A DNA stretch of 64,000 nucleotides from an uncultured Gammaproteobacteria bacterium (GTDB taxonomy: Bacteria; Patescibacteriota; Microgenomatia; Levybacterales; GWA1-39-11), in assembly GCA_964452165.1 (NCBI GenBank), contig CAYVKP010000001.1:490729-554728 (forward strand). The letters run 5' to 3'. Below the pieces are notes generated by a model. That model worked only from the letters and a program-made list of their open reading frames with translations, was not told the DNA's origin and searched no databases. Position 1 is the first letter of the stretch. The number at the start of each line of letters is the position of its first letter. A program made the translations under genes and the position numbers. Below, piece after piece: positions 15,200 through 33,163 of the stretch.

Positions 15200-15854
15200 A
15201 AATACCTACGGCTATGGGCTATTTTTGCAAAAACAAAACCAAGTTTTCAGGGAGGACTTGTATAAAAGGTTGGAAGTTAAAAAAACTTTCGCAAATAAAA
15301 AAATTTTAGACTTAGGCTGTGGTGACGGTATAGACTCGGTGTTTTTGTCAAAATCTGCAAAGCTTGTAATAGGAGTCGATGTGATTGCCTACAGGCAGTG
15401 GCCATCATTAACAAATAAAAGATTAAGGTTTACTAAGGCTAATTCTACAAACCTTCCTTTTAGAGATAACACCTTCGACGGAGTTTACTTGAAAGATATG
15501 TTGCATCACATTAAGAACGTAGAAAAAACCCTGGAGGAGATCAAGCGTGTGACAAAGGCCGGTGGTGACATTGTAATACTTGAAGCAAATAGATATAACC
15601 CGATCTTCTATTTTTACGCTACCAAAATTAGGGGTCACGACCATTTTTCGCAAGGAGAGTTCAAAAATTTAATCAAAAGTAAATTTCCAAAGACTCGCTT
15701 CATTCATCTGGAGGCTTACCCACCTTTTCGTTTGCCAATGATCGTCTATAAGCTTGTTCAGAAGCTTGAGAACGGAATTAACAAGATACATCTTCTTGAT
15801 CCCATTTTTTCATACAACTTGGCAAAAATAAAAAACACTAAACAAAAGACTTGA
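15162..15854 (+). CDS. Class I SAM-dependent methyltransferase
   Basis: ILDLGCGDGIDSVFL (motif I), DGVYLKDMLHHI and TKAGGDIVILE. The true start may be the internal Met at ~15180. Confidence 0.6.
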   Translation: MKRGAIMRKRSLRNTYGYGLFLQKQNQVFREDLYKRLEVKKTFANKKILDLGCGDGIDSVFLSKSAKLVIGVDVIAYRQWPSLTNKRLRFTKANSTNLPFRDNTFDGVYLKDMLHHIKNVEKTLEEIKRVTKAGGDIVILEANRYNPIFYFYATKIRGHDHFSQGEFKNLIKSKFPKTRFIHLEAYPPFRLPMIVYKLVQKLENGINKIHLLDPIFSYNLAKIKNTKQKT

Positions 15855-17700
15855 GGAGACTTGCCCGATTTTTTACCAGGTATAAAATCCAGAAGGAAAA
15901 AGTGGAAATGGAGACTATTAGACCGTAATAAAAGGGCGTGGAGGAATAAATAAATTTATAAACATGATTGCCCGGGACTGTTTCGACTTCCAAAAATCTT
16001 CCGACTAATAATTCCTGTTTTTTACCGTCCACAAACGCGTTCCAGCCGGGATATTTACTTTCAAGCAGTAATAAGTGTTTTTTACCCTCTGAATTGGCAG
16101 ATAGAGTTATCTCATTTACTGAAAAAACGGGCCTTTGAGGTTCTTTATCAATAGCTGCAAATGGCGTTGCCCCAGAATCCTTATAAAGAATGATATTCTT
16201 ATCGAATTCTCTTATTTTTTCAAGCTCCGCGTTTTCAATATTAGTTTTGCTAATGACAAATCCGGGTTTTAAGTCTACGTAAGATTTTTCTTCCCTAAAA
16301 TTATATTTTTCAGCCAAGCTTCCTTTCAGTATTAATCCATAGTTAGATTGCAGCATAAGTAGATGATGGAGATAGGCCTGGTCTTGGGGAATATCGCCTT
16401 GTGATGTGGCGTGAACGGTATAGTAGCTATTTGGGTTATTGTTTGCAATCCACACAAGTGGAGCTGTCGTCTCTTGGTTAATATTGCCGAATTCTTTTGT
16501 TGCTAAGATTTTTTGTGAGAAGGCGAATACCACAACTAGATTTAAAATCAAAACTACAATTGCAATAATCTTTCTTTTCCATGCATCAACTAACAATCCG
16601 AAAGAAAGCAGAATTATTATTCCCCAAAGCGCAAGTATTCTACTTGGAACATGGAAGTACTGCAGAGTACTGATGCTTGAAATAATGTAATAGAGCGGGT
16701 TGATAGGTGCATCGGGCGTTGAAAGCAGCAAAAATAAAATTGTTAGAACGATAAGAATTGGTATTTTTCCACTGGATTTTGTAAGTGAGGATTTGGCCAG
16801 GAAGTATAATCCCAGAATAGAAAACGGACCAATAAAAGAAAGACTTTCCCACCAACCGAATCCCGTCGATATAGCGTTTTTACTTACAATATTCAGATCG
16901 AACGGAAAAAATAAATTATATATAATGCTGAAGAAATTCAATCCCCCATTGAAAGGCTCCTTCGTTTTGGATATATAATTTTGCAGCTCTATCATCGGAA
17001 AGATTTTGATAGAGGAGAATAATAAGAAGAAGATGACGGTTAACATCAATAATAAAGAAACCTTTTTGTCCTTGAGCAGGTAATATAAAAAAATTGCAGC
17101 TGTGCCGTACAAACAATAAAGGCAATTGTATATATCGCCCGTGAAAAGAATTAATGAAAGAGTGATTGCGGCAAGTCCGGCCCACAATATTTTTCTGTCT
17201 TGAGATATTTTCACAATACAAAATAGAAACAAAGGGAGGAAGCCAAACGACACTACTTTTTCAATATGACCCGCAGCAACTCTTGACGCCAAATATGTAC
17301 CGCTTGCGTAAGTCATGGATATTAATGTAGAAACGGTTGGCGAAGTTTTATAGAGTCTTGCAAGACAAAACATTGATAAACACGCCAACAACACGGAAAA
17401 AAAATAAGTGACTTTTATGGCAGTGGAGTAATCAAAGATAAGAATAGGAATACTGATAACCGGATTGTATATTCCATACAACGGGTCGGCGATGGCAGGA
17501 ATTCCCTGATCAATATAGGGGTTCCACTGAGGAAACTTATGGTGCTTAATAACTGATTCTTTAAAGTGCAGAAGTGGTACAATGTTGCCATTGAGGTCAT
17601 TGCCGTTTATGACGGTGGGGCTTAGAATAAATTGTAATAAGACAAGCCAACTGAAGATAAAAAATAGAATAAAAACTTTAAGATTCATGAATAATTTCAA
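15838..17700 (-). CDS. Polytopic membrane protein, GT-C-like (paralog A3, minus strand)
   Basis: More than 12 predicted TM helices with an acidic motif after TM1. The C-terminal soluble domain plus terminal TM (VYKFIYSSTPFYYGLIVSISTF) resembles the tails of the A1/A2 paralogs. Confidence 0.4.
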   Translation of the reverse strand: MKLFMNLKVFILFFIFSWLVLLQFILSPTVINGNDLNGNIVPLLHFKESVIKHHKFPQWNPYIDQGIPAIADPLYGIYNPVISIPILIFDYSTAIKVTYFFSVLLACLSMFCLARLYKTSPTVSTLISMTYASGTYLASRVAAGHIEKVVSFGFLPLFLFCIVKISQDRKILWAGLAAITLSLILFTGDIYNCLYCLYGTAAIFLYYLLKDKKVSLLLMLTVIFFLLFSSIKIFPMIELQNYISKTKEPFNGGLNFFSIIYNLFFPFDLNIVSKNAISTGFGWWESLSFIGPFSILGLYFLAKSSLTKSSGKIPILIVLTILFLLLSTPDAPINPLYYIISSISTLQYFHVPSRILALWGIIILLSFGLLVDAWKRKIIAIVVLILNLVVVFAFSQKILATKEFGNINQETTAPLVWIANNNPNSYYTVHATSQGDIPQDQAYLHHLLMLQSNYGLILKGSLAEKYNFREEKSYVDLKPGFVISKTNIENAELEKIREFDKNIILYKDSGATPFAAIDKEPQRPVFSVNEITLSANSEGKKHLLLLESKYPGWNAFVDGKKQELLVGRFLEVETVPGNHVYKFIYSSTPFYYGLIVSISTFSFWILYLVKNRASLLKSFV

Positions 17701-17721: not shown

Positions 17722-19773
17722 ATGATAAGAAGACCTTCATTTTTATTGAATTTATTTAAAGACAGAAGCCGTTTTTTTACAGGTTTAATACTCTTCATAA
17801 TCGCATTAATATTTAGGGGGTGGTTCCACTTGTTGCCGTTATCAACGGGGGATTGGAGCTATAAGTTTCCCCAGACAATTTTAGATTTTAAATTATATCC
17901 GTATGCTTGGGGCCCAACTTTTAATAATGGCATGGGTGGTAGTACTATTTTTCTTCTTCCTCTTAACACTTTCTTTGTAGGTTCTGCGTCAATTCTATTC
18001 AGCTTTTTCCACCTGCCATGGGTTTTGATTGAGAAGTTGGTTTGGTTTTGGCCATATCTTATTATTGCCGTTTCCGGTTCATACTTTCTGTTTAGAAGAT
18101 TTGTAATAAATGATAATATGCTCGCTCTTGTTTCCTCTCTAATCTTTACCACAAACACTTATTCGCTCATGGTCACAGGAGGAGGGCAAATTGGGGTGGG
18201 AGCAGCTTATGCTCTTATTCCGTGGGTGTTTTGGGGTTTTCTCAATACCTTGGAGAGTACGCGTAAACACGGATTGATCACTAAATCTTCTATTGTCGCG
18301 GGTCTGATATTATCGCTTCAATTGGTGTTTGATTTGCGAATCGTTTACGTTACGCTCGTATCACTTTCCATATACTATTTGTTTTATGTTTTATCTTCCG
18401 GATTCTTTGAGTCGATCAAGAAAAGCATTGTGCCCTTTTTCATCGTTCCTGGCGTAATAACTTTATTCCTCCATTTTTTCTGGATACTTCCGCTCATATT
18501 GGCAGGGCAAAATCCGGTGAGCGCACTGGGCGCAGCCTACACCGGTTCTGGGATAGTAGACTTTTTGAGTTTTGCAAAACTTGAGAATACTATTTCCCTG
18601 CTTCACCCAAATTGGCCCGATAATTTGTTTGGGAAAGCCTATTTTATGAGACCCGAATTTTTAATAGTTCCTATCTTGGGGTTCGGGTCTCTGCTCTTTT
18701 CGCCAAAAAATAAGAAGGCCAGTTTGATTTTAGTTTTTTGTACTCTCTCTCTTTTGGGAGCTTTTCTTTCAAAGGGTACAAATGATCCTTTCGGTAGCAT
18801 CTATAAATTGGCTTTTGAGAAGGTTCCCGGTTTTATCATGTTCCGCGATTCAACTAAATGGTACGGTATGACGGCGTTATCTTTCTCGCTGCTCATTCCT
18901 TATTTCTTGTTTAATCTTTCGGAGGTAGTCAAAAGAAAGATAAAAAAAATAGACGTGCTTAGTATATTGGTTTTAATATTTTTAGCGCTTTGGAGTTTCA
19001 CTATAAGGCAGGCTGTCATGGGAGAAGTTAAGGGAACATTTGCACCTCAAAAATCACCTCAACAGTACGCACAATTAACAAACTTTTTGGACTCACAAAA
19101 AGAATTCTTCAGAGCACTTTGGGTTCCATCTTTTCATCAGTATACTTATATGTCGTCCAGTCATCCGGCTATTCCTGCCGGAGATTTTCTAAATGCATAT
19201 TCAGCAAAAACAATTGCCCAAAAAATCCGAAAAAGCCCGAATTTGCTTGCGGATTCGAGCATAAAGTATTTAATTGTTCCGGACGACGTTTACGGTAAGA
19301 TATTTACGGACGACAGAAAATATAGTGACAAGCTTTATCAGGAGCAGGTCAGTCTCTTAAATGGCATAAGTGGCTTAAGAAAAGTAGCCAAGTTTGACAA
19401 TATTGTTGTTTATGAAAACGCCAGTTTCAAAGACCATTTTTGGAGTCGTACTAATAACCTTAAAATAAAATATAGGTCAATCACCCCAACCATGTATCAG
19501 GTTTGGGTAGATGATGCTAAAAAAGGAGACACGCTGGTTTTTTCTGAAGCATTTGACAAGAATTGGGTAGCCGCTGTTTCAGGTGTTAATATTTCGAGCT
19601 TGAAGTACGAGAGTTCACTCAACAGCTTTGTTTTGCCAAGAGATGGGAATTTTGTTTTAACGATTGCATACAAACCGCAAAGGTTCGTTGACATAGGGTT
19701 GATTGTGAGCGCGGTAAGTCTTTTTGTAGTGTTAATGGTTTTAACCATGAATAAGTCTAAGATTAAAAAATGA
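17722..19773 (+). CDS. Polytopic membrane protein, GT-C-like (paralog A4)
   Basis: Multi-TM N-terminal half with STGDW after TM1. The C-terminal domain ends ...TIAYKPQRFVDIGLIVSAVSLFVV (TM), the same tail pattern as A1/A2. Confidence 0.4.
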   Translation: MIRRPSFLLNLFKDRSRFFTGLILFIIALIFRGWFHLLPLSTGDWSYKFPQTILDFKLYPYAWGPTFNNGMGGSTIFLLPLNTFFVGSASILFSFFHLPWVLIEKLVWFWPYLIIAVSGSYFLFRRFVINDNMLALVSSLIFTTNTYSLMVTGGGQIGVGAAYALIPWVFWGFLNTLESTRKHGLITKSSIVAGLILSLQLVFDLRIVYVTLVSLSIYYLFYVLSSGFFESIKKSIVPFFIVPGVITLFLHFFWILPLILAGQNPVSALGAAYTGSGIVDFLSFAKLENTISLLHPNWPDNLFGKAYFMRPEFLIVPILGFGSLLFSPKNKKASLILVFCTLSLLGAFLSKGTNDPFGSIYKLAFEKVPGFIMFRDSTKWYGMTALSFSLLIPYFLFNLSEVVKRKIKKIDVLSILVLIFLALWSFTIRQAVMGEVKGTFAPQKSPQQYAQLTNFLDSQKEFFRALWVPSFHQYTYMSSSHPAIPAGDFLNAYSAKTIAQKIRKSPNLLADSSIKYLIVPDDVYGKIFTDDRKYSDKLYQEQVSLLNGISGLRKVAKFDNIVVYENASFKDHFWSRTNNLKIKYRSITPTMYQVWVDDAKKGDTLVFSEAFDKNWVAAVSGVNISSLKYESSLNSFVLPRDGNFVLTIAYKPQRFVDIGLIVSAVSLFVVLMVLTMNKSKIKK

Positions 19774-20024: not shown

Positions 20025-20564
20025 ATGAGAATAGGAATCGATGTTAGCCAGCTTGCTTACCAGAATACCGGAGTAGCAAATTATCTTTCTGATTTGGTTT
20101 TAAAACTTATTGATACCGACCGGGACAACGAATATATTCTTTTTTTTTCAGCCTTACGAAGGAGATTGCCAATCAGTTTTGAAGAGAAGGTTAGAGAGTT
20201 GGCAAACGTACGGCTTAAAAAGTTTAGCATGCCTCCCGCGGTTCTTGACGTAATCTGGAATAGACTGCACATTCTTCCTATAGAAAACTTGCTTGGAGGG
20301 CTTGATGTTTTTTTGACTTCAGATTGGGCAGAGCCACCCGTACGCAGGGCCAAGAAGATTACAATTATCTATGACCTTATTGTCTATAAACATCCTGAAG
20401 AAACTGATCAAAAAATTATATCAGTTCAAAAGAGAAAGCTTGCCTGGGTAAAAAAAGAGAGCAATATTGTATTTTGTATCTCAGAATCAACTAAAAGTGA
20501 TGTCGAAAACATATTGGGAATTCAAAGTTCTAACGTTAAGGTTATTTATCCTGGAATATTATGA
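20025..20564 (+). pseudogene. Truncated GT4 glycosyltransferase, N-terminal (acceptor) domain only; possible gene remnant or split gene
   Basis: MRIGIDVSQLAYQNTGVANYLSDLVLKL...NEYILF parallels the N-terminus of the full GT4 at 29860 (MKIGIDCRLAKQTGVGRYTRNLIINLLKLDKKNEYVLF). It stops after ...VKVIYPGIL, before any GT-B C-terminal (donor-binding) domain. Confidence 0.4.
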
Positions 20565-21703
20565 AAATAGGAATTAATGGTTTTGAAGCAGTCATACCCA
20601 GGTTTGGATACGACAAAAGTGGTTTACCCAACCGGGTGGGAAGCTCTGAGGTTTGCTTTGAACTTCTTAGCCAACTCTCAAAAATCGATAAAAAAAATAA
20701 ATACTCCATATTTCTTCCGGTCCCACCAACCGCCGATCTTCCAACCGAATCGGAAAATTGGCATTACGAAGTAATTCCGGATTCAAAACTCTGGACAGTA
20801 GTGGGTTTGGGTAAAAAGCTTTTGTATGGGGAAAAGTTCGACGTTTTTTTCTCCCCAACTCACTACGGCCCCCTAATCACGCGAAGTCCGGAGGTTGTGT
20901 CGGTTCTGGATGTATCGTATAAATATTTCCCCGAGCTTTTTAAGAAAAAAGATCTAGCCCAGCTTTCTATATGGGGTAAGTATTCTATAAAAAAAGCCTC
21001 AAAAATCATTACGATAAGCAATTCTAGCAAGAGTGATATAATTAAGGAGTACGGTGTAGCCAACGAGAAAATTGCCGTAGTTTATCTTGGTGTCAAGGAG
21101 AACAATAAAACGAAAATGAAAGCATCGGAGGTTTTGGAAAAGCATAATATTAAAAAACCCTATCTTCTATTTGTAGGTACTCTTCAACCAAGGAAAAACA
21201 TATCAAGATTGATAGAGGCCTTCTCTCAGATCGTGAAAGGGCATAAAAATTTATCTTTAGTTGTTGTCGGAAGACGTGGTTGGCAGTTTGAGGAGATTTT
21301 GAATTCACCCTTAAAATTTGGAGTCGCAGAAAGTGTGAGATTTTTGGAAAATGTAAACGATGACGAGCTCCCCTCTTTCTACGAAAACGCAGAAGCCTTT
21401 GTGTTGCCGAGTCTTTATGAAGGATTCGGATTACCGGTTCTTGAAGCCATGAAATATAATTGTCCCGTTGCAACGAGCGATATCTCATCTCTCCCCGAGG
21501 CCGGAGGAGATGCTGCGGTCTATTTTGATCCATATGACACGCATGATATGGCAGAGAAAGTTGGAAAAATCCTATCAAACAGCAAATTACGTTCGGAAAT
21601 GGTTAAAAAAGGCCATGCGCAGGTCAAGAAATTTTCTTGGGAGAAAAGTGCACGTGAGGTTCTGAAGGTTTTAGAGGAAGTGGGAGGTAAAAATGCTGCG
21701 TAA
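20561..21703 (+). CDS. Glycosyltransferase group 1 (GT4), complete
   Basis: LLFVGTLQPRKN...VVVGRRGW...FVLPSLYEGFGLPVLEAMKYNCPVATSDISSLPEAGGDAAVYFDP is the canonical GT4 E-x7-E region. Confidence 0.75.
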   Translation: MKIGINGFEAVIPRFGYDKSGLPNRVGSSEVCFELLSQLSKIDKKNKYSIFLPVPPTADLPTESENWHYEVIPDSKLWTVVGLGKKLLYGEKFDVFFSPTHYGPLITRSPEVVSVLDVSYKYFPELFKKKDLAQLSIWGKYSIKKASKIITISNSSKSDIIKEYGVANEKIAVVYLGVKENNKTKMKASEVLEKHNIKKPYLLFVGTLQPRKNISRLIEAFSQIVKGHKNLSLVVVGRRGWQFEEILNSPLKFGVAESVRFLENVNDDELPSFYENAEAFVLPSLYEGFGLPVLEAMKYNCPVATSDISSLPEAGGDAAVYFDPYDTHDMAEKVGKILSNSKLRSEMVKKGHAQVKKFSWEKSAREVLKVLEEVGGKNAA

Positions 21704-22247
21704 AATCACGAGGAGAATCTCAGCGATTCTTCTTGAAACTGACAATATGATCCTGCGATGCGTTGGAAATGTTCCATTTCACCATGTCAGGCGGTTTTTC
21801 TATAGAATTGGCGGAATGAGGATAGGCGCGGGTTCGGCAATTCATATGGGTGCGGTTTTCTATAAAGTTTCAAATATTAAAATTGGAACGGACACCATAA
21901 TTGGTGAAAATGCGGTTTTTGACGGCCGTGACAAGCTTACGATAGGTAACCACGTGGATATTGCTTCGGAGGTTATGATATACAACGCGGAGCACGATAT
22001 CAACGATGAACATTTTAAAGCGGTAACAGGTCCGGTTGAAATAGAAGACTACGTATTTATAGGTCCTCGAGTGATAATTTTACCGGGAGTCAGAATTGGA
22101 AAAGGGGCAGTAGTAGGAGCGGGAGCGGTAGTTACTAAAGACGTTGAAGAATTTGCCATTGTCGGCGGTGTCCCTGCAAAGGTAATCGGAGAGCGCAAAC
22201 TAAAAAACCCCACATACCGACTGGGAAGAGCAGCATGGTTTCGATAA
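21693..22247 (+). CDS. Hexapeptide-repeat (LbH) acetyltransferase
   Basis: IGENAVFDG...IGNHVDIASEVMI...VFIGPRVIILPGVRIGKGAVVGAGAVVTKDV. Confidence 0.65.
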   Translation: MLRKITRRISAILLETDNMILRCVGNVPFHHVRRFFYRIGGMRIGAGSAIHMGAVFYKVSNIKIGTDTIIGENAVFDGRDKLTIGNHVDIASEVMIYNAEHDINDEHFKAVTGPVEIEDYVFIGPRVIILPGVRIGKGAVVGAGAVVTKDVEEFAIVGGVPAKVIGERKLKNPTYRLGRAAWFR

Positions 22248-23077
22248 TAATCCTCACGTATAACAGCGAGAAATTTATTGAGGAGACAATTGGAAGTCTC
22301 TTGGATTTTACTACTGGCACAGAAATAATAGTTGTGGACAACGCATCAACGGATAAGACTGTGAGTAAGATCAAAAAATTCGGGAAGAAGGTCAAATTTA
22401 TTGAAACAGGAGCCAACCTTGGGTTTTCAGCCGGAATTAACGTAGGAGCAAAAAAAGCGACCGGTGAGTATCTATTGTTCGTAAACCCCGACACAAAATT
22501 TAAAAGTGGAAACATAGAAGACATGATATCCGTATTTGACAACAACATTGATGCGGGAGTCGTGGGGGGAAGGATGCAGGCTGCGGACGGACATGTGGAA
22601 AAATCGACAGGAAAATTTTTTGGAGTTCTTGCAAGTATTTTAATTGCAGCAGGACTTGATGAGAAATTAGGAGTCAGGCGGTCTCCGGGCAAAATAGAGA
22701 AAGTTGATTTTGTCTCGGGCGGTTTCATGATGGTAAAGGCTGAATTATTTAGGAAATTGGGTGGATTTGACGAGAATCTTTTCATGTACGTTGAAGATAT
22801 GGAGTTATGTTTTCGCGCAAGACTTTCAGGATACTCAACTTACTTTGTTCCAAGCGTTGTTGTGACGCATATAGGTCAGGGTAGTTCCAATCGGGCATTT
22901 GCAATAAAGAATATTTTCAGGGGAGTTTTGTATTTTCACAAAAAACACGGAACACCTTTCTCATATGGAATTGTCAAAGCTCTTTTTACCCTCAAGTCTC
23001 TGACCCTTGTAACAGCAGGTAAAATAATGAATAATAAATATCTACTGGAGACCTATAGCGGTGCAGTCAAAACATGA
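22235..23077 (+). CDS. Glycosyltransferase family 2
   Basis: VSIIILTYNSEKFIEETIGSL...EIIVVDNASTDKT; DxD-type motif (VNPDT). Confidence 0.75.
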   Translation: MVSIIILTYNSEKFIEETIGSLLDFTTGTEIIVVDNASTDKTVSKIKKFGKKVKFIETGANLGFSAGINVGAKKATGEYLLFVNPDTKFKSGNIEDMISVFDNNIDAGVVGGRMQAADGHVEKSTGKFFGVLASILIAAGLDEKLGVRRSPGKIEKVDFVSGGFMMVKAELFRKLGGFDENLFMYVEDMELCFRARLSGYSTYFVPSVVVTHIGQGSSNRAFAIKNIFRGVLYFHKKHGTPFSYGIVKALFTLKSLTLVTAGKIMNNKYLLETYSGAVKT

Positions 23078-26000
23078 AGAAAATCTTATCCTACGTTGTC
23101 GATAACCTACTTTTTTTTATAACTCTTTTCCTTTTAGTATTCATACCCTTATATCCCAAGTTTCCATTGATAGACATAAAGAATACCTGGGTATATGTTA
23201 GAGTAGAGGATTTTCTCGTTCTCGCGACAGTTTTCATTTGGCTTGTATATTACATTAGAAAGAAAGTTGTACTTAATGCTCCCCTTACCTTGCCGATCAT
23301 TATATTTTGGATAGTGGGCGCCATCGGCACGATTCACGGCGTAGTTCTCGTTTTCCCCGGTATTGCAAATGTTTTTCCCAATGTAGCCTTCCTGAGTTTC
23401 ATGCGGCACATAGAGTATATGTCGTTGTTTTTTATAGCGTATTCCTCGGTCAAGGACAGAAAACAAATCTGGGCTTTTATCGCCGCCATAACAATAACGC
23501 TTTTTGGAGTTGTTGCTTACGGTTTGGGACAAAAATATTTAGGGTTCCCAGCTTACCTTACAATGAACGAGGAATACGCAAAAGGCGTTGCCATAAGGTT
23601 ATCGGATCTTTCTCGTATTCCCTCAACTTTTGCCGGTCATTATGATTTGGCCGCATATCTTGTTTTGATTGTTCCGATTCTTGCGAGCCTTGTTATTGGG
23701 GTGAAGAATATTTTGGGCAAAGCTGTTCTTGCTGTTGCGACAGTTTTGGGCGTTGGCCTACTGTTTATGACTGTTTCAAGAGTCTCTTTTTTTGTTTTGA
23801 TAGTTGCGCTTTTTGCTGTCCTCTATTTTCAAAAGAAAAAACTTATCCTATATTCTCTACCGTTCATAGTAATACTCGGATTTTTATTCGTTAGTTTCAA
23901 GCCCACTTTGCTTGCGCGCTTCAGCAACACAGTTCGTGAAGTAAATGTTCTTGTTGATGGGAAGACGGGGACAGCCGTAGGCCAAGTAAAATTCGTTCCG
24001 TTCTCTTATTTTAAAGATAAAGTAATCAAGCAACAAATTATAGGCGACCGGGATCAACTCGATTCGGCAATGGTAGGCCAAACCCAAAATATACGTGAGA
24101 TAGCAGAATCCACTTCCGCCGCAACGCTCAGGCAAATTTCCCCCGACGCCCAAGTCCCCTTAGTTTTCGCAACGAATGTTTCAACTGGGGAGAATTTGCC
24201 GCAGGGGACAGGCTATATAAATTTGTCTCTATCGCCAGTCGTAAAGCGAGTCGGCAATTTTTTCTATGAGCTTGCCCCGAATATTGCCTCCAGCGCATCA
24301 GCTCAAGTCTTGATTCTCCACGGCGACTTCATAATTAAAAAAGCTTCGGCTTATGATTTGTCTTTTACAACAAGATTCCAGGGGGAATGGCCCCATGCCT
24401 TGCTTGCGTTTGAAAGAAATGTGTTGGTAGGGAGCGGTTATGGCGCAGTGAGTCTTGCCGTAGACAATAATTACCTTAGAATGCTTGGCGAAACAGGGCT
24501 TTTGGGCACCTTATCGTTTCTTGCAATATTCTTGGTTCTCGGGATCTACATAAAGAAAGTTTTACCTGATATTCGCTCCTCTGTTGTCAAGAGCTTTATC
24601 TTGGGTTTTGCGGCGGGTCTTATTGGACTTGCTCTGAACGCAACCCTTATTGATGTTTTTGAGGCAAGCAAAATTGCATTCCTGATGTGGATGTTGATAG
24701 GGGTCGTATTCGGAATTATAAATTCTTATAAAACCCAAGTTAACATAGTGGAGGAATTAAAAGCCGCTTTAACCTCAGATGTTGCAGTCGGTGTTTACCT
24801 TTTGATTGTTGCAGGTGTAATTTTCTCGCGAATGCTCGGAAATTATTTTGTTGCCGATGATTTTACTTGGTTCCGTTGGGCTGCCGACTGTCATAGCTCC
24901 GTTATCTCATTAGGCGGTTGTTCCTCGTTTCTATCTACTATATCTCACTATTTCACAGAGGCTGGTGGATTTTTCTGGCGACCCGGGACAAAAACCTACT
25001 TTCTCTTGATGTATTCAGTCTTCTGGTTAAATCAAACCGTTTATCATGCCGTGTCTATAGTTCTCCATTTTATAGTCGCTTTTCTTTTCTTCCTTCTGGC
25101 AAAAAAGATTCTCAAAAATTCTCTCCTTGCAGCGGGCGCATCGCTATTATTCTTAATTATGAGTGGATACGTCGAAATAGTATTTTGGATTTCTGCAACC
25201 GGTCATTTGTTCAATGCCGTATTCATGCTTCTTGCTCTCATTATGTATATTTCTTGGCGAGAGAAAAAACAGGCTCTGTATCTTGTGATTTCGCTGTTGT
25301 CGACGGTGCTATCTCTCCTTTTCTATGAGACCGGAGTGGTAGTGCCGCTTTTAATACTTGCATATGAGCTGGTATATAATCCTTCCTTCAACATAAAGAG
25401 ATTCTTTAAAAGGGCAGAGTACCTAATCTTATTTGTTCCCAACCTTTTTTATCTTGTCATCAGATTTTTAGCCGGAAGTCATTGGCAAGGCGGAGACTAT
25501 AGTTATAACTTGGTAAAACTCCCCTTCAATCTAATAGGTAATTTGGTAGGTTATGTGGGACTCACATTTATGGGCCCGCTCTTCTTGCCGGCATATGAAA
25601 AAATGCGAACTGTCCTCAGGGGAAATTTACTCGTTGCCGGCGTTATAGCGCTCGTTTTAATTGTGGTGGTAATTTTTGCAGCGCGTGTGTTTATGAAAAC
25701 AATTGAGGGAGAAGATAGAAAAACAGTGTTGTTTGCCGGATTATTCTTTGTTATATCACTACTTCCATTCATAGGTTTTGGCAATATTACGGCTCGCTAC
25801 AGTTATCTTGCATCTTTAGGATTAATAATCATTTTTGTATTTATCTTGAGGAAACTTTATAGATATTTGCTTGCGGAAGGGCGCCCCATCGCAATATCAG
25901 TGGTCGTACTTATTATTGCGGCTTTTTCCCTGCTCCATATTATTGAAGTTCAGCAAATCCATCAGGACTGGAACGGCGCCGGACTTGAAGCAAAAAACTT

Positions 26001-26322
26001 CTTCACCGCGATAGATGATTCCTATTCGGACTATTGGTCAAGTGAGCCGATGCAGCTCCACTTTGTTAACGTGCCCTTAAAAAATGGAGAGGCTTGGGTT
26101 TTTCCGTGGGGAATATCTGATGCAACCTGGTTTGCCTTCAAAAATCCCAAGGCTCAAGTCTATACCGACCCGCAGGTCACTTACGATCTTCAGTCAAAGA
26201 TTTCCCGTAATTTCAAAGTTTTTGAGTTTAACGGAGACGGAAGCGTGACGGAGGTCCAGCCGCCCACTAAGTCCCTCGGTTCGCCAACCCCAACTCCAAC
26301 CTCGTCTCTCAAGCGTTATTAA
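23074..26322 (+). CDS. Fusion membrane protein: O-antigen ligase/Wzy_C-like domain (N-terminal) + GT-C-like polytopic domain (C-terminal), Thr/Pro-rich C-terminal tail
   Basis: The N-terminal half has ~10 TMs and a ~200-aa extracytoplasmic loop. The Wzy_C-type signature GSGYGAVSLAVDNNYLRMLGETGLLG is present. The C-terminal half adds ~10 TMs with FVADDFTWFRW after a TM (GT-C-like DD motif). The tail is SLGSPTPTPTSSLKRY. Confidence 0.5.
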   Translation: MKKILSYVVDNLLFFITLFLLVFIPLYPKFPLIDIKNTWVYVRVEDFLVLATVFIWLVYYIRKKVVLNAPLTLPIIIFWIVGAIGTIHGVVLVFPGIANVFPNVAFLSFMRHIEYMSLFFIAYSSVKDRKQIWAFIAAITITLFGVVAYGLGQKYLGFPAYLTMNEEYAKGVAIRLSDLSRIPSTFAGHYDLAAYLVLIVPILASLVIGVKNILGKAVLAVATVLGVGLLFMTVSRVSFFVLIVALFAVLYFQKKKLILYSLPFIVILGFLFVSFKPTLLARFSNTVREVNVLVDGKTGTAVGQVKFVPFSYFKDKVIKQQIIGDRDQLDSAMVGQTQNIREIAESTSAATLRQISPDAQVPLVFATNVSTGENLPQGTGYINLSLSPVVKRVGNFFYELAPNIASSASAQVLILHGDFIIKKASAYDLSFTTRFQGEWPHALLAFERNVLVGSGYGAVSLAVDNNYLRMLGETGLLGTLSFLAIFLVLGIYIKKVLPDIRSSVVKSFILGFAAGLIGLALNATLIDVFEASKIAFLMWMLIGVVFGIINSYKTQVNIVEELKAALTSDVAVGVYLLIVAGVIFSRMLGNYFVADDFTWFRWAADCHSSVISLGGCSSFLSTISHYFTEAGGFFWRPGTKTYFLLMYSVFWLNQTVYHAVSIVLHFIVAFLFFLLAKKILKNSLLAAGASLLFLIMSGYVEIVFWISATGHLFNAVFMLLALIMYISWREKKQALYLVISLLSTVLSLLFYETGVVVPLLILAYELVYNPSFNIKRFFKRAEYLILFVPNLFYLVIRFLAGSHWQGGDYSYNLVKLPFNLIGNLVGYVGLTFMGPLFLPAYEKMRTVLRGNLLVAGVIALVLIVVVIFAARVFMKTIEGEDRKTVLFAGLFFVISLLPFIGFGNITARYSYLASLGLIIIFVFILRKLYRYLLAEGRPIAISVVVLIIAAFSLLHIIEVQQIHQDWNGAGLEAKNFFTAIDDSYSDYWSSEPMQLHFVNVPLKNGEAWVFPWGISDATWFAFKNPKAQVYTDPQVTYDLQSKISRNFKVFEFNGDGSVTEVQPPTKSLGSPTPTPTSSLKRY

Positions 26323-26358: not shown

Positions 26359-27795
26359 ATGAAGCTAAAGGATTTGGCTATTTTGCTGCTGTTTGTTTTG
26401 GGTTTTATTGTTCGCCTTTATCGCTTTGACAACCCCGTTGCTGACTGGCATGCATTTAGGCAAGGCGACACTAACGCCGTTTCTCAGATTTACGTTCGTG
26501 ATGGAATCAATCTTCTATCTCCTCGCTACTTCGATATATCCAATATTCAATCGGGGAAAGATAATCCCAAAGGATACAGACTTGTAGAATTCCCCATTTA
26601 TAATGCTGTTCAGGCGTTTTTATTCACTGTTTTTAAGACCCTGACGCTTCCCGAGTGGGGCAGAATAATTTCTATAATTGCAACTCTTTCGGGGGCATTC
26701 TTTGTTTACAAACTAGTCAAAAAATACGCAAATGAGATGGCCGGAATTTTCTCAGCTTTTTTCTATTTATTCTTACCTTTTTCAATTTTTTACGGAAGAA
26801 CAATCCTGCCGGATCCCTCTATGGCCGCAGCAATTCTTGGTGGAATATATTTTTTTGACTTGTGGACGTCAAGAAAGAATTTTAAATTTGAAATTTTAGA
26901 TTTTAAATTTTTGTTCGCGATTCTATTTACGGCCACTTCTTTTCTTCTAAAGCCTTACGCCATAATCTTTACTCTTCCAATGATTTATCTTGCCTGGAAC
27001 AAGTTTAAATTCGAAATTATTAAAAAATGGCAACTTTGGTTTTTCGCTATTGTTACCTTGATTCCCATTGTTCTTTGGAGAAAATTTATCGGGCAACACC
27101 CCGAAGGAATTCCGGTCTCTGACTGGCTTTTCAACGGTAACGGCATAAGGTTTAGGCCTTCTTTTTTCCGCTGGATATTTTACGAAAGAATTACCAGGTT
27201 AATACTTGGTTTTTCCGGAGTAGTGTTTCTTTTGGACGGGATTTTATATCTATTCAAAAATAAGAACAAAATGTTTTTCTTATCTTTTGCCGTATCTTCG
27301 CTAATTTATCTGTTCGTTATAGCAACGGGCAACGTACAGCATGACTATTATCAAATTTTAATAATCCCTACAATTTCTATTTTCGCGGGCCTTGGAGCGT
27401 TTGGTTTATTTAAAACGGTTGAGAAGTGGGGCAGGACTGCTGCTATTGGCGTATGTTCGATTCTGATAGTTGTATCGTTATTCTTTTCCTGGAGGCAGGT
27501 TCGTGATTATTTCAATATAAATGATACAAGAATGGTTCATGCAGCAGCTGTTGCGAATAAAATTTTACCTGCCGACGCGACGGTTATTGCACCATATGAT
27601 GGGAGTACAACTTTTTTGAATTTGATACAAAGACGCGGTTGGCCAACTTTTGAGAAGGGTATAGAGGAATTAACCCGTGACGGGGCACAATATTTAGTGA
27701 TAGCCTCACCCACAAAGAATGATTTTTCAGGATTTGGGAAAACTTATCAACACGTTGCAGCTGGGCCTGACTATTTGATCCTTAAATTGAAATGA
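26359..27795 (+). CDS. GT-C-family membrane glycosyltransferase (ArnT/PMT-like)
   Basis: 478 aa with ~11 TMs. RFDNPVADWHAFRQGD lies in the first extracytoplasmic loop, as in ArnT/PMT-type transferases. Confidence 0.45.
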   Translation: MKLKDLAILLLFVLGFIVRLYRFDNPVADWHAFRQGDTNAVSQIYVRDGINLLSPRYFDISNIQSGKDNPKGYRLVEFPIYNAVQAFLFTVFKTLTLPEWGRIISIIATLSGAFFVYKLVKKYANEMAGIFSAFFYLFLPFSIFYGRTILPDPSMAAAILGGIYFFDLWTSRKNFKFEILDFKFLFAILFTATSFLLKPYAIIFTLPMIYLAWNKFKFEIIKKWQLWFFAIVTLIPIVLWRKFIGQHPEGIPVSDWLFNGNGIRFRPSFFRWIFYERITRLILGFSGVVFLLDGILYLFKNKNKMFFLSFAVSSLIYLFVIATGNVQHDYYQILIIPTISIFAGLGAFGLFKTVEKWGRTAAIGVCSILIVVSLFFSWRQVRDYFNINDTRMVHAAAVANKILPADATVIAPYDGSTTFLNLIQRRGWPTFEKGIEELTRDGAQYLVIASPTKNDFSGFGKTYQHVAAGPDYLILKLK

Positions 27796-28958
27796 AAAAG
27801 GTTTTATTCGTGACTTATGATTTTCCATATCCTACCAATACAGGCGGAAAAAACAGGGCATATCATATGCTTAAATACTCGGGCGTCGGTTTCAAAAAAT
27901 ATCTATTTTCATTTGTTCGCCCCGATTTTAAGAGTGAGAATATCAAACACCTTGGGGCAATAGGAGTTGAAGTTTTAAAAACTGTGCCGCGAAGAAAAGT
28001 TACAGACCCCAGGAACGTCATGGGCTTGCTTGGTCAGGGATCAATTTTTAAAACCTTATATTATTCAGAAGACATTCTTGAGGAGTTGATCCGGCTTATT
28101 CGCCAATACGAGATTGATATCGTTCACTTCGAATCCTTTTTTACAGGATTCTATATTTCAAGCGAAATAAAAAACTTGGGTGCGAAACAAATTTACGGAT
28201 CGGAAAACGTAGAATACAAAATGTATAGGGATTATGCGGTTGGCTCTCCTTTTTTCATAAAACCCTTCATGGGCGCGCAAGCTGATAAGATTAAACAAGA
28301 GGAGGAGAGTATGGCAAGAGCCGCTGACGTTTGCGTTGCAGTTTCAGACGCTGAGGCAAGAGAAATTAGTAAAACCGGTGCCGAGTGCGAGATAGTCAGG
28401 AATGGCGTAGATATTGATGAATTCAAACCCAGAAAGCTTGAGAAGGAAGTCAAAAATCTATTGTTTGTAGGGAATTTTACTTATTTTCCAAACGTTGATG
28501 CGATCAGTTTTTTCTACAACGAAGTTTTCAAAAAATTAGAAATGGATTTGAAGCTCACAGTTATTGGGAAAAAAGTGTTTGATTTGCCATTTGCCCGCGA
28601 GGATAGAGTTGAGGCAATCGAATTTGTTAAAAATATTCAAGACGCATATGACAACGCGGATATAATGGTCTCACCGGTTAGGCTAGGCGGTGGTACAAAC
28701 TTCAAAGTTCTTGAAGCGATGGCAGCAGGAGTGCCCGTTATTGCGCTGCAGGATAGGATAGTTGGTCTTGATGTTAAAGATGGCGTTAACATAATGGTTG
28801 CCAAAGATGGTCCGGACTTTGTCAGAATAATAGATAGACTTGCGGGAGATCACGTGCTCCGTACGAAAATATCAAATGCCGCCAGAAAACTTGTTACTCA
28901 CGAGTATTCGTGGAAGATAATAGGAAATAATCTTGCAACCATTTGGGAAAACCTATGA
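27792..28958 (+). CDS. Glycosyltransferase group 1 (GT4)
   Basis: LLFVGNFTYFPNVDAISFF...VSPVRLGGGTNFKVLEAMAAGVPVIA. Confidence 0.7.
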   Translation: MKKVLFVTYDFPYPTNTGGKNRAYHMLKYSGVGFKKYLFSFVRPDFKSENIKHLGAIGVEVLKTVPRRKVTDPRNVMGLLGQGSIFKTLYYSEDILEELIRLIRQYEIDIVHFESFFTGFYISSEIKNLGAKQIYGSENVEYKMYRDYAVGSPFFIKPFMGAQADKIKQEEESMARAADVCVAVSDAEAREISKTGAECEIVRNGVDIDEFKPRKLEKEVKNLLFVGNFTYFPNVDAISFFYNEVFKKLEMDLKLTVIGKKVFDLPFAREDRVEAIEFVKNIQDAYDNADIMVSPVRLGGGTNFKVLEAMAAGVPVIALQDRIVGLDVKDGVNIMVAKDGPDFVRIIDRLAGDHVLRTKISNAARKLVTHEYSWKIIGNNLATIWENL

Positions 28959-29863
28959 AAAAAATAGATCTTTCAATCGTAATTGTTACTTATAATTCGC
29001 AAGACCTAATCCTTTCTTGTCTCGATTCAATTTACAATACGTGTAAGAAAAATTCATTTGAAGTTATAGTTTCGGATAATAGTCCAATTCAAGCCACAGC
29101 TCAAATAATTGAGGAAAATAAGAGCAGATATCCGGGACTAATTTTTATCAAAAATCATGACAATATAGGTTTTTCTAGAGGAAACAATGTAGGAGTTAAA
29201 AAAAGCCATGGAGAATACGTTCTTTTCTTAAATCCAGACATGAAAGTTTATGACCGGACTCTTGATGGGATGCTGGATTTTATGCGGGAGCATGAGGATG
29301 CGGGAGCGGCAACTTGTTACGTAGAGCTTCCCACAGGAAAGCTAGACGACTCATCCCATAGAGGATTCCCAACTCCGTGGCGCGCATTAAGTCATTTTGC
29401 AGGCCTTTCCAAAATATTTTCAAAGTCAAAAATGTTTGCCGGTTACAACATGACATATTTGGACATTTTCAAAACTCACGAGATTGATTCTCTTGCCGGA
29501 TCATTTCTTCTTATTTCAAGAAAACTGGGAGAAAAACTTTCCTGGTGGGACGAGGACTACTTTTTTTACGGGGAAGATATAGATTTCTGTTTTAGGATTA
29601 GACAAGCTGGTCTTAAAGTATATTTTGTTCCGGAATACAGGGCGCTTCATTACAAAGGAGTTTCATCCGGTATCAAGAGCGTTTCAAAAAACATGACTCG
29701 CGCCTCACTTGAAACTCGAATACGCGCTACCAATTGGCGTTTTGATGCAATGAGAATTTTTTATGACAAGCACTACAAAAATAAATACCCGGGATTTTTA
29801 AGAGAGTTGGTTTTGGCAGGAATATCGGTAAAAAAGTTTTTAGCACTTAAGAAAATAAAATGA
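28943..29863 (+). CDS. Glycosyltransferase family 2 (rhamnosyltransferase-like)
   Basis: LSIVIVTYNSQDLILSCLDSI...EVIVSDNSP, FLNPDM, YFFYGEDIDFCFR. Confidence 0.75.
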   Translation: MGKPMKKIDLSIVIVTYNSQDLILSCLDSIYNTCKKNSFEVIVSDNSPIQATAQIIEENKSRYPGLIFIKNHDNIGFSRGNNVGVKKSHGEYVLFLNPDMKVYDRTLDGMLDFMREHEDAGAATCYVELPTGKLDDSSHRGFPTPWRALSHFAGLSKIFSKSKMFAGYNMTYLDIFKTHEIDSLAGSFLLISRKLGEKLSWWDEDYFFYGEDIDFCFRIRQAGLKVYFVPEYRALHYKGVSSGIKSVSKNMTRASLETRIRATNWRFDAMRIFYDKHYKNKYPGFLRELVLAGISVKKFLALKKIK

Positions 29864-30990
29864 AAATTGGAATTGACTGCCGTCTTGCCAAACAAACCGG
29901 AGTAGGAAGATATACCAGAAATTTAATAATCAACTTATTAAAGCTGGATAAAAAAAATGAATATGTTTTGTTTGCTCGCGCAGAAGATGTTAGTGATGTT
30001 AAGAAGTTTGTTAAAAACGATATAAAAATCGTTACTTCAAATATACCCTGGCATGGATTCGCCGAGCAATTTGAATTTCCAAAGGTTTTAAATCGTGAGA
30101 ATTTGGATCTCGTTCATTTTCCATATTTCTCAGTGCCTGTTTTCTATTACAAGCCCTTTGTCGTAACGATTCACGACTTAATCGTCAACCGTTTTGCTAC
30201 GGGTCGCGCATCTACTCTTCCATATCCCGTTTATTTTGCCAAAAGAATGGGATATCAGGCGGTTATTGCTTCCGCAGTTTATCGTTCTACGAAAATAATT
30301 GTTCCTTCAAAGACGGTCAAAGCGGATTTATTGAAAAGCTACAGAAACGTTAATCCGTCCAAAGTGGAGGTCACTTATGAAGGGCCAATCGAAAATTCTT
30401 CTAAAACCAAAACAAAGCCGCGAGTTGAAGGAAAATATTTTTTGCGGGTCGGTAATTTTTATCCACACAAAAACGTTGAGAACTTAATAGCCGCATTTAA
30501 AGATTTTATTTTTGATAGCTACGATAATAAAGATGCAAGGCTGGTTTTAGTTGGGAAAAAAGATTATTTTTGGAATAAAATCTCAAACGTTATCAGTAGA
30601 TCCAATATAGAAAACAACATAGTATTCATTGATAACCCCTCAGATCAAGATCTTACAGCTCTTTATGAAAATGCCGTAGCTACAATTGTGCCATCTTTCA
30701 TGGAAGGATTTTCTCTGACCGCAGTTGAGGCAATGTTCTGCGGATCTTTACTGGTAGCATCTGACATTCCTGTTCATCGCGAGATCTGTGGTGATTCGGC
30801 GATATACTTTAATCCCAAAGATACCAACGACATGAGACAAAAAATAGGCTTTGCATTTTCTCTTGTAGAGTCTTCGCGAGAAGATCTTATAATACAAGCA
30901 AAGAAGCAGTCGGAAAAATTCTCGTGGTCAAAAATGGCGCAGGAGACTCTTAATATTTACGAATCCTCAGTTGTGGCCACGAGTAAGTAG
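29860..30990 (+). CDS. Glycosyltransferase group 1 (GT4)
   Basis: MKIGIDCRL...FLRVGNFYPHKN...VPSFMEGFSLTAVEAMFCGSLLVASDIPVHREICGDSAIYFNP. Confidence 0.75.
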   Translation: MKIGIDCRLAKQTGVGRYTRNLIINLLKLDKKNEYVLFARAEDVSDVKKFVKNDIKIVTSNIPWHGFAEQFEFPKVLNRENLDLVHFPYFSVPVFYYKPFVVTIHDLIVNRFATGRASTLPYPVYFAKRMGYQAVIASAVYRSTKIIVPSKTVKADLLKSYRNVNPSKVEVTYEGPIENSSKTKTKPRVEGKYFLRVGNFYPHKNVENLIAAFKDFIFDSYDNKDARLVLVGKKDYFWNKISNVISRSNIENNIVFIDNPSDQDLTALYENAVATIVPSFMEGFSLTAVEAMFCGSLLVASDIPVHREICGDSAIYFNPKDTNDMRQKIGFAFSLVESSREDLIIQAKKQSEKFSWSKMAQETLNIYESSVVATSK

Positions 30991-30997
30991 CGCTTTT

Positions 30998-31006
30998 TGC
31001 TATAAT
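30998..31006 (+). promoter_or_regulatory. Extended -10 element (TGCTATAAT) 7 nt upstream of the ATG at 31013
   Basis: The exact hexamer TATAAT is preceded by TGn. It lies inside the 3' end of the upstream GT4 gene. Confidence 0.3.
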
Positions 31007-31012
31007 CGCTCC

Positions 31013-32071
31013 ATGAAGGTTGCATTAGTTTACGATAGGGTAAACAAGTGGGGAGGGGCAGAGCGGGTAATTGTTGCTCTTCACAAGATTTTTCCTCAAG
31101 CAGCCCTATACACCTCAGTTTACAAAGAGAATCGTGCTTCTTGGGCAAAAAAAATCCCCGTTATTCCATCCTTTTTACAAAAAATTCCCTTTGCCACAGA
31201 ACATCACGAGGCACTCGGTGTATTAATGCCGATTGCTTTTGAATCTTTTAACTTTGATGGATATGATTTGGTTATCTCTCTAACCAGCGAGGCGGCAAAA
31301 GGGGTAATCACAAGACCGCCAACTCGTCACATCTCAATAATCTTGACTCCTACAAGATATTTATGGAGCGGATATAAAGATTATTTCTCAAACGAGTTAT
31401 TTAAGATGCTTGCCCTACCCGCAGTTGCGTATTTGAGGTTCTGGGACAAAATTGCGGCAAACCGTCCGGACAAACTTATCGCAATTTCAAAAACCGTTCA
31501 AAATAGAATTTCAAAATATTACGGCCTTCCATCGCAAATAATCTATCCTCCACTCATGATTAGAAGTGGGAAAATTAAGCCCGTTGATGGAAAATATTTT
31601 TTGGTTGTTTCGCGGCTTGTCCCCTATAAAAAAGTAGATTTGGCGGTTGCCGCGGCAAATAAGAGCGGCGTGCAGCTTAAAATAATAGGGACAGGAAATG
31701 AGCTTTCAAGGCTTAAGAAAATGGCGCGGTCTAATATTGAATTTTTAGGACAGGTTACAGATTCTGAGCTCAAGAAATATTACACGGAATCGAAGGCTTT
31801 AATTTTCCCCGGGATTGAGGATTTCGGTCTGACAATGGTTGAGGCCCAATCTTTTGGAAAACCCGTGATAGCCTATAGAGGCGGAGGAGCGGAGGAGATT
31901 ATAATAGATGGGGTGACGGGTAAATTCTTTGACAAGCAAAACTCGTCGGATTTGGCTCGCGTGTTGAAAAACTTTCGTCCAAAAAGCTATAATATATTCG
32001 CTTGTAAAAGAAACGCACGTCGTTTCTCATTTGAGTCGTTCAAACAAAAAATAAACGATATAATAAACTAA
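31013..32071 (+). CDS. Glycosyltransferase group 1 (GT4)
   Basis: MKVALVYDRVNKWGGAERV... (GT4 N-domain) and ...IFPGIEDFGLTMVEAQSFGKPVIAYRGGGAEEII. The start is chosen at the internal ATG rather than the upstream alternative start in the ORF track. Confidence 0.7.
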   Translation: MKVALVYDRVNKWGGAERVIVALHKIFPQAALYTSVYKENRASWAKKIPVIPSFLQKIPFATEHHEALGVLMPIAFESFNFDGYDLVISLTSEAAKGVITRPPTRHISIILTPTRYLWSGYKDYFSNELFKMLALPAVAYLRFWDKIAANRPDKLIAISKTVQNRISKYYGLPSQIIYPPLMIRSGKIKPVDGKYFLVVSRLVPYKKVDLAVAAANKSGVQLKIIGTGNELSRLKKMARSNIEFLGQVTDSELKKYYTESKALIFPGIEDFGLTMVEAQSFGKPVIAYRGGGAEEIIIDGVTGKFFDKQNSSDLARVLKNFRPKSYNIFACKRNARRFSFESFKQKINDIIN

Positions 32072-32079
32072 GTTAAAAT

Positions 32080-33162: not shown

Positions 33163-33163
33163 T

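Follow-up and report, generated by a model that had tools for sequence, protein, structure and literature searches.

What kind of enzyme is made when two membrane-embedded glycosyltransferases (GTs) share a single reading frame, and what would it do in a bacterium of the candidate phyla radiation (CPR)? The question is raised by a gene, here called the target, that lies within 64,000 nucleotides of contig CAYVKP010000001.1 (positions 490,729 to 554,728 of assembly GCA_964452165.1; hereafter the window). It encodes a polytopic membrane protein with an N-terminal module of the Wzy_C superfamily, represented among others by the O-antigen ligase WaaL, and a C-terminal module of the GT-C(A) fold. 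The architecture appears to be undescribed, yet it is assembled from known enzyme folds. We propose that the target probably builds and decorates one cell-surface glycan. More specifically, the reading that we favour, at a probability of roughly 0.45, is that two outward-acting, lipid-carrier-dependent transferases are combined in one polypeptide and act successively on one surface glycan.

The target is a genuine, conserved 1082-residue membrane protein of the Levybacteria, a lineage of the CPR, and not an artefact. The open reading frame (ORF) starts and ends exactly where the original prediction, made from the letters of the window, had placed it (Table 1), and all the strings quoted there were found. 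Its start codon shares the sequence ATGA with the stop codon of the preceding GT2 gene, and a spacer of 36 nt separates it from the next gene. A hydropathy scan gave some 22 hydrophobic segments, with a loop of ~190 residues (277-466) and a C-terminal end of 125 residues as the hydrophilic stretches. The identical protein is recorded from an NCBI contig of 650 kb, and more than 120 homologue clusters of 1045-1096 aa share 54-65% identity with it over 96-100% of the length. Since an ORF of 1082 codons is conserved across this many homologues, it cannot be a chance ORF. Public records either leave the homologues unnamed or list them, under Candidatus Levybacteria or Patescibacteria, as 'O-antigen ligase family protein' or 'hypothetical protein'. 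An exhaustive profile search yielded 415 representatives of 50%-identity clusters at E<=1e-30, about 26 of them full-length (995-1070 aa). In addition, scanning a single genome for every GTDB species located 273 loci with a relative of the C-terminal half; the counts of loci given below refer to the best 80 of these 273, which derive mostly from Levy(i)bacteria and further from some Roizman-, Gottesman- and Woesebacteria. Near-complete N- and C-modules occupy a single frame in 74 of the 80; four of the remaining six are cut at contig ends and two have a truncated N-terminal part that still shares its frame with the C-terminal one.

How the two modules came together can be read from their split relatives. 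A search with the C-half alone retrieves stand-alone proteins of 467-516 aa with ~34% identity. Moreover, on the contigs L001, L002/L003, L085 and L086 a Wzy_C-annotated gene of 506-528 aa lies directly upstream of a C-type gene of 485-516 aa, the two overlapping by 4-20 nt. Wherever the contig reaches, the order on these split contigs is that of the window, namely GT4 fragment-GT4-Hexapep-GT2-[N][C]-PMT_2-GT4-GT2 (L003 begins inside the conserved order, and the short L086 covers only GT2-[N][C]). The N-half of the target is 38% identical to the split N protein of L001 (E 5e-119) and 36% identical to that of L002 (E 4e-99). The linker coincides with the boundary between the split genes: split N proteins stop around residue 557, and the stand-alone C protein P0155 begins at about profile position 564. 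Because four more distantly related contigs carry the halves as overlapping neighbours within the same neighbourhood, the target is a textbook fusion of two adjacent and probably translationally coupled genes. The original prediction had proposed a Wzy_C/O-antigen-ligase-like module fused to a second GT-C-type module and had pointed to separate genes in relatives as a way of confirming it; both the fusion and the separate, adjacent genes are real. Taken together, fusion and split adjacency argue strongly for a link between the two activities.

Other lineages contain proteins of 1123-1266 aa (P0248, P0259, P0286, P0305 and P0314) in which an N-type, Wzy_C-like module is followed by other C-terminal parts, including a calcineurin-like metallophosphoesterase domain in P0286. 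The two sequences that were read, P0248 and P0305, both have the aspartate variant TDNNYLR of the motif discussed below. The N-module thus recurs as a partner in fusions.

The assignment of the N-module rests on profile matches, fold and motif. Scanned alone, the N-half matched Pfam Wzy_C (PF04932) at 17.9 bits over residues 222-295, below the cut-off of 31.7, and the full-length target gave no Wzy_C match in Pfam. Within the family, Wzy_C was detected at E<=1e-3 in 8 of 41 members (best 1.6e-6), and the split N genes carry PF04932 in precomputed Pfam annotation. The Wzy_C match foreseen for residues ~1-560 thus fell short of the threshold in the target itself, but one scanned relative, P0305, exceeded it with 42.1 bits. 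NCBIfam returned only far-sub-threshold matches for the target, to IctB (E 1.9e-5) and AFWIR; the full-length family profile A1 found nothing meaningful among PDB sequences, and hhalign detected no similarity between the N-family and E. coli K-12 Wzy (WbbH). The AlphaFold 2 (AF2) model of the full-length chain has a mean predicted local distance difference test score (pLDDT) of 77.6 and a predicted TM-score (pTM) of 0.77, the latter suggesting a defined mutual arrangement of the two modules. In this model the N-module forms 12 transmembrane (TM) helices and, close to its C-terminus, a long extracytoplasmic loop, the layout seen in WaaL. A Foldseek search with the full-length model listed WaaL (7tpg_B; target-normalised TM-score 0.58, probability 1.00, E 0.058) and FtsW, all other matches being GT-C(A) structures. 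Both matches vanish when the C-half alone is searched, and they therefore belong to the N-module.

The loop, given as ~200 residues in the original prediction, spans residues 277-466. It contains a beta-rich insert (residues ~287-428, 23932..24357) that is strongly conserved among the fused proteins, e.g. in STGENLPQGTGYINLSLSPV, and shortened, variable or replaced in the split relatives; the confidence of the model is moderate here. This insert could be an acceptor- or glycan-binding domain.

The residues of the presumed active site place the N-module more precisely. R236 aligns to R215 of E. coli K-12 WaaL (hhalign, family profile A3, E 3.2e-4) and is kept in at least 90% of profile A3. R282, R434 and R469 are invariant in A3 and are at most candidates for the counterpart of the second WaaL arginine. 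D464 falls on the position of the WaaL/PglL histidine and the SEDS aspartate in three independent alignments. In the first, A3 searched against the PDB with hmmsearch places tDNdYlR on SHNIVLQ of the 610-aa 'Oligosaccharyltransferase' 9rmk_A, which is the best PDB sequence match (E 0.045). In the second, a low-stringency hhalign comparison with E. coli WaaL places D464-N465 on H338-N339. In the third, TDNdYLR..GEtG is placed on TDSIFAIFAEESG of the FtsW encoded in the window itself, a motif-only match (E 0.037). D464 is invariant in A3, in the fused as well as in the split forms, and the dipeptide DN was found in 73 of 73 loci and a histidine in none of them. The original prediction had named the family of WaaL and the PglL/PilO protein O-oligosaccharyltransferases; this stands at the level of the superfamily only, the catalytic histidine being replaced by an invariant aspartate.

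The replacement can be compared with a known distinction. Clan GT-C1 groups the O-antigen ligases (GT121) with SEDS proteins (GT119) and inverting polymerases (GT125-129), and the position of the ligase histidine is taken by an essential aspartate in SEDS and, GT127 excepted, by Asp or Glu in the polymerase families (PMC10920833). Polymerases of this clan combine Asp or Glu at that position with one or two conserved arginines on the outer face (PMC10920833), and D464 together with R236, R282 and R434 provides such a set. Judged by these residues, the N-module is most readily classed as a member of the Wzy_C superfamily with a catalytic signature of the SEDS/polymerase type and not of the ligase/PglL type. 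A Wzy-type inverting polymerase is more likely than a canonical ligase because of the invariant Asp at the position of the His.

A comparison with WaaL (PF04932, GT121, 7TPG) shows both sides. The target has in common with it the 12 TM helices, the large external loop ahead of the last three helices, an arginine equivalent to R215 and a G-x-G ... N-x-(Y)-L ... E-x-G-x-x-G motif. It differs in the invariant Asp in place of the acceptor-activating His, in the sub-threshold Pfam score, in the fused second GT and in the beta-rich insert of the loop, whereas the loop of WaaL is described as mainly helical. In contrast to the hosts of WaaL, a patescibacterial host is expected to lack a lipid A-core.

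The C-half has no Pfam match at E<=1 and none in NCBIfam, and its stand-alone homologues fall into no such family either; P0155, P0167 and P0225 gave no Pfam match, to PMT_2 (PF13231) or any other family, at E<=0.01. Modelled alone from a mixed alignment of fused and split proteins, it reaches a pLDDT of 90.8 and a pTM of 0.90, and has 13 TM helices. The first 31 ranks of its Foldseek search against the PDB are all GT-C enzymes (STT3, PglB, AglB, DPY19, ArnT, PMT, AftB, EmbB, ALG6 and PIG-M), with a probability of 1.00 down to rank 27 and of 0.90-0.95 for the last four. At the level of sequence, phmmer searches from the C-half reach PMT_2+TPR proteins (E 5e-9), and hhalign relates the C-module to one of these, P0173, over 352 columns (probability 99.2%, E 2.2e-19). 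Both the fold and the conserved acidic residues right after TM1 are those of a GT-C(A) enzyme: D595-D596 is invariant across fused and stand-alone homologues, is present in 80 of 80 loci and aligns with the WDD of P0173. Further invariant residues are R636, K640, H658, H665, E701, E752, D808, N819, N823, R845 and R908. The original prediction had rightly noted a separate second module with the motif FVADDFTWFRW, but its estimate of ~10 TM helices has to be replaced by 13 modelled helices and an alpha/beta domain. Because the number of helices is odd, that C-terminal domain should be extracytoplasmic.

We regard the C-module as a new divergent family in the PMT_2/TMTC-like branch of GT-C(A) that is devoid of TPR and MIR domains. 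With PMT_2/TMTC proteins (PF13231; ArnT, GT83; PMT, GT39) it shares the GT-C(A) fold, the DD after TM1 and a C-terminal domain outside the membrane, whereas it differs in having no Pfam PMT_2 match and no TPR or MIR, in an identity of only 11-14% to all solved GT-C structures and in its fusion to a Wzy_C-like module. The donor is most likely a polyprenyl-monophosphate sugar, possibly mannose, since the sequence relatives use such donors and the hallmarks of N-oligosaccharyltransferases are absent. In fact, a placement of the C-module among the latter enzymes (GT66) was rejected: it has no STT3 match in Pfam and no WWDYG, its C-terminal domain comprises only ~85 residues, and its fold resembles theirs no more closely than as GT-C(A) in general. 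Profiles of each half detected no paralogue among the ORFs of the window.

The models are compatible with a topology in which the N-terminus is inside and 12 TM helices, a cytoplasmic linker and 13 further helices follow, so that both predicted active sites would lie outside. The DD motif, the C-terminal domain and the tail would then be external, with the invariant polar residues facing outward and the short loops rich in Lys and Arg inside. From these data and the gene cluster we infer donors, acceptor, order of reactions and the choice of a polymerase over a ligase as follows. A glycan linked to undecaprenyl pyrophosphate (Und-PP) would be started by the Bac_transf enzyme of the cluster and elongated by the GT4 and GT2 enzymes. 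The N-module would take this glycan and transfer it en bloc, more likely as a Wzy-type inverting polymerase, and the C-module would add a sugar from a polyprenyl-phosphate donor to the same glycan or to the acceptor of that glycan. The fusion would hold the two activities at a ratio of 1:1 and let them act consecutively in a single-membrane CPR bacterium. The coupled transfer and extension suggested in the original prediction is plausible in this light, backed as it is by the fusion and the gene adjacency. There are two precedents: periplasmic GT-C enzymes modify Und-PP-linked glycans including O-antigen (PMC11127046), and WadA is a bimodular ligase in which a GT121 module is joined to a GT25 module that makes the acceptor of the ligase (PMC10920833; PMC9938171).

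The likeness to inverting Wzy polymerases and SEDS proteins (GT119, GT125-129) lies in the Asp at the ligase-His position and the conserved Arg on the outer face; moreover, TDNxYLR..GEtGllG of the target resembles TDxIFA..xEExGxxG of SEDS, and, as would be expected of a Wzy gene, the target has a phosphoglycosyltransferase and numerous GTs as its cluster neighbours. It differs from these enzymes in that the comparisons with FtsW/RodA (E 0.037) and WbbH gave nothing significant. Several results weigh against the proposed succession of two transfers. The placements of D464 are weak one by one (E 0.045, a low-confidence region of the hhalign alignment, and E 0.037). Among the scanned ORFs of the 64-kb window no Wzx-type/MOP flippase, Wzz chain-length regulator or GtrA-like flippase was recognised, that is, none of the Wzx and chain-length-regulator partners that mark the locus of an inverting Wzy polymerase, and no clear polyprenyl-phosphate-sugar synthase was recognised there either. 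The Foldseek matches of the C-half are modest (best E 4.4e-5, TM-score ~0.45-0.5, identity 11-14%) and place users of Und-PP-oligosaccharides (STT3/PglB) as high as users of lipid-phosphate-monosaccharides; the fold therefore leaves the donor class of the C-module unfixed. A tighter arrangement, with both modules sharing one acceptor channel and the transfers obligatorily coupled (branching during co-polymerisation, or priming followed by en-bloc extension of a protein or lipid acceptor), is in our view unlikely. If true, glycans would be assembled outside the cytoplasm in a way not previously described and perhaps peculiar to the CPR envelope.

The alternative that survives best follows the logic of WadA. 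The sugar added by the C-module would prime a membrane glycolipid or other anchor, onto which the N-module would ligate an Und-PP-linked polymer, and the product would be a lipoglycan or a molecule like lipoteichoic acid in a single-membrane bacterium. The WaaL-like fold of the N-module with its 12 helices and large loop between TM9 and TM10, the position of R236 on WaaL R215 and the lack of a recognised Wzx or Wzz partner in the window all agree with it. Pneumococcal TacL, reportedly a Wzy_C-type ligase acting in Gram-positive bacteria, would be a further parallel. The fusion of a ligase to an acceptor-making GT is documented for WadA of Brucella and Mesorhizobium, where, as in the target, a Wzy_C-type module and a second GT work on the same glycoconjugate (PMC10920833; PMC9938171). 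However, the partner in WadA is a soluble, cytoplasmic GT25 of the GT-A fold that uses a nucleotide sugar, whereas in the target it is a GT-C(A) enzyme of 13 TM helices with a predicted lipid-linked donor, and Pfam finds no GT25 in the target. More importantly, every member of the family has Asp for the ligase His, which is the state of SEDS proteins and polymerases in GT-C1, and the cluster holds no other polymerase candidate, as would be needed if the glycan is made of repeat units. We therefore consider priming and ligation possible, if on balance doubtful.

Protein O-glycosylation would give both modules a different task: the PMT/TMTC-like module would O-mannosylate Ser or Thr of secreted proteins and the PglL/PilO-like one would transfer or extend a glycan, maybe onto the tail of the target itself. 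Homology does link the C-module to the TM portion of PMT_2+TPR proteins, PMT and DPY19 are among its fold matches, the N-family finds its best PDB sequence match in 9rmk_A, and the tail, rich in Pro, Thr and Ser, is predicted to be extracellular. The resemblance to PglL/PilO consists in the common Wzy_C superfamily and in the 9rmk_A match, which spans the signature motif. Yet the E-value of that match is just 0.045, the His of the O-oligosaccharyltransferases is an Asp, the Pfam scan detected neither PglL_A nor another accessory domain specific to these enzymes, the C-module is devoid of the TPR and MIR domains by which TMTC and PMT bind their acceptors, and the surrounding cluster, with its phosphoglycosyltransferase and numerous GTs, is of the polysaccharide type. 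This alternative is thus improbable as well. The tail itself, which the original prediction had thought to be a substrate of the enzyme, does not support the idea: it has a pLDDT below 50, contributes no majority residue to the family consensus and has counterparts only in the closest relatives (4 of 80 loci). It is a lineage-specific low-complexity extension and not a functional hallmark, and its lack of conservation led to the rejection of self-glycosylation.

A third possibility is that one of the modules is a non-catalytic pseudo-enzyme that binds the lipid carrier or acts as a scaffold and so regulates the other. Neither module exceeds a curated family threshold, the canonical His is missing from the N-module, and SEDS enzymes and Wzy likewise rely on partner proteins. 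Nevertheless, D464, R236, R282 and R434 are kept at the expected outward catalytic positions in fused and split forms, the same is true of D595, D596, R636, K640, E701 and E752 of the C-module, and SEDS proteins as well as the inverting polymerase families are active with an Asp in place of the His, which makes a silent module very unlikely. Finally, that a frameshift or assembly error united two genes finds a footing in the separate genes of related lineages, but this is already refuted by the unbroken ORF, its identical copy on the 650-kb contig, the >120 independent full-length homologues, the single frame found in 74 of 80 species, with genomes that stem from many studies, and the linker, modelled as a helix.

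The fusion of the two transferases is of wider interest. Enzymes of the Wzy/WaaL/SEDS and of the PMT/ArnT/OST types are normally separate proteins, and cooperation between them has been inferred from genetics. A natural fusion that is widely conserved, and whose counterparts in sister lineages are unfused, overlapping gene pairs, provides direct evidence from evolution that this particular pair functions jointly. For structural and biochemical studies it is a compact object in which to ask how modification dependent on a lipid-phosphate-sugar is coordinated with polymerisation or ligation. It also delimits a GT-C(A) family for which Pfam has no model, and directs attention to a surface glycan pathway, as yet unstudied, of Levybacteria and other Microgenomates, bacteria that have not been cultured, possess very small genomes and have envelopes about which almost nothing is known. 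The exchange of His for Asp may serve as a useful marker in the annotation of 'O-antigen ligase family' proteins of bacteria free of lipopolysaccharide. Literature searches turned up neither a GT-C(B)+GT-C(A) fusion nor the family of the C-module nor the Asp variant in CPR, and nothing relevant on O-antigen-ligase-like proteins of CPR/Patescibacteria; one paper containing those terms treats unrelated domains.

Table 1. Features of the target gene and of the glycan cluster that surrounds it (positions in the window).
Feature	Coordinates	Residues	Strand	Basis and remarks
GT4 N-domain ORF, GT4, hexapeptide acyltransferase, GT2	20025..23077		+	Pfam; order shared with L001, L002, L085
Whole target gene, bimodular polytopic membrane glycosyltransferase	23074..26322 (including stop)	1-1082	+	ORF list; 1082 aa, ATG start, uninterrupted
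N-module, Wzy_C/WaaL-like, 12 predicted TM helices, GT-C(B), CAZy clan GT-C1-like	23074..24738	1-555	+	Pfam, AF2, Foldseek
Candidate pyrophosphate-binding Arg, motif TVSRVSF	23779..23781	R236	+	hhalign, conservation
Large extracytoplasmic loop with beta-rich insert, between predicted TM9 and TM10	23902..24471	277-466	+	AF2; R282 and R434 invariant
Wzy_C signature GSGYG...VDNNYLRMLGETGLLG	24430..24507	453-478	+	Full string GSGYGAVSLAVDNNYLRMLGETGLLG; D464 at 24463-24465
Linker, predicted cytoplasmic	24724..24777	551-568	+	AF2; short helix 558-566, pLDDT ~80
C-module, GT-C(A)-fold glycosyltransferase, 13 predicted TM helices and small C-terminal alpha/beta domain	24778..26274	569-1067	+	
FVADDFTWFRW, candidate catalytic acidic motif of the first external loop	24847..24879	592-602	+	D595-D596 directly after TM1
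C-terminal soluble alpha/beta domain, ~85 residues	26026..26274	~985-1067	+	AF2; strands and helices 994-1060
Pro/Thr/Ser-rich tail SLGSPTPTPTSSLKRY	26272..26319	1067-1082	+	Disordered, pLDDT <50
PMT_2 GT-C glycosyltransferase, downstream	26359..27795	478 aa	+	PF13231, 36.2 bits; always next to the target in relatives (synteny)
GT4, GT2, GT4, GT4, ManC-like nucleotidyltransferase, Bac_transf initiating phosphoglycosyltransferase, DUF4012 protein	27792..35879		+	Pfam

The genes of the glycan cluster around the target are co-directional and tightly packed (Table 1). The product of the PMT_2 gene directly downstream has no detectable relationship to the C-module. At the other end, the 179-aa ORF at 20025..20564 (+) contains only the N-terminal Glyco_transf_4 domain and directly precedes a complete GT4 gene. 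Since the same arrangement is kept in distant relatives (L001, 2843..3412; L085, 94..675), it looks like a real stand-alone half-GT4 and not like a broken gene.

Further upstream (261..6783, +) is a set of genes reminiscent of the Arn (aminoarabinose) pathway, with a GT2 that has a C-terminal hydrophobic segment, a polysaccharide deacetylase, a formyltransferase, two NAD-dependent epimerases/dehydratases, a GT4 and a methyltransferase. This set could be the source of a polyprenyl-phosphate-sugar donor for the GT-C enzymes. It is followed by two paralogous gene pairs, at 7430..10718 and 11907..15199 (+), that encode proteins of 757+341 aa and 769+328 aa (35% and 28% identity). The proteins of each pair are polytopic, with ~10 and ~5 hydrophobic segments, and find no match in Pfam or NCBIfam; the 757-aa protein has GGDD right behind its first TM helix, which suggests further unclassified enzymes of the GT-C type. 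Two more polytopic proteins without family, of 620 and 683 aa and with ~9 TM helices, are encoded at 15838..17700 (-) and 17722..19773 (+), the latter with only an MmpA-like match far below the threshold (22.7 bits against a cut-off of 210). Together with the target and the product of the PMT_2 gene, these proteins make up an unusually dense array of GT-C-like membrane proteins in the window. Scans of the window for tRNA genes and Rfam families came back empty.

The remainder of the window bears on the host. A dcw-type cluster at 49349..61838 (+) encodes a PBP transpeptidase, a Mur ligase, a MurA-like protein of the EPSP_synthase fold, a GlmU-like protein, a second Mur ligase, MraY, FtsW and FtsA; with such a cell-wall and division cluster, the organism makes peptidoglycan. 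Many of the records that contain a gene of the target type (L007, L008, L011, L016 and others) bear the title 'uncultured Gammaproteobacteria bacterium', and, judging by their gene content and closest relatives, these look like mislabelled metagenome-assembled genomes. Beside the glycan cluster (36454..41323, +) lies a small defence island, which consists of a type I restriction-modification system (HsdR-like, 739 aa, and HsdM-like, 497 aa) followed by a protein with the C-terminal domain of Shedu SduA.

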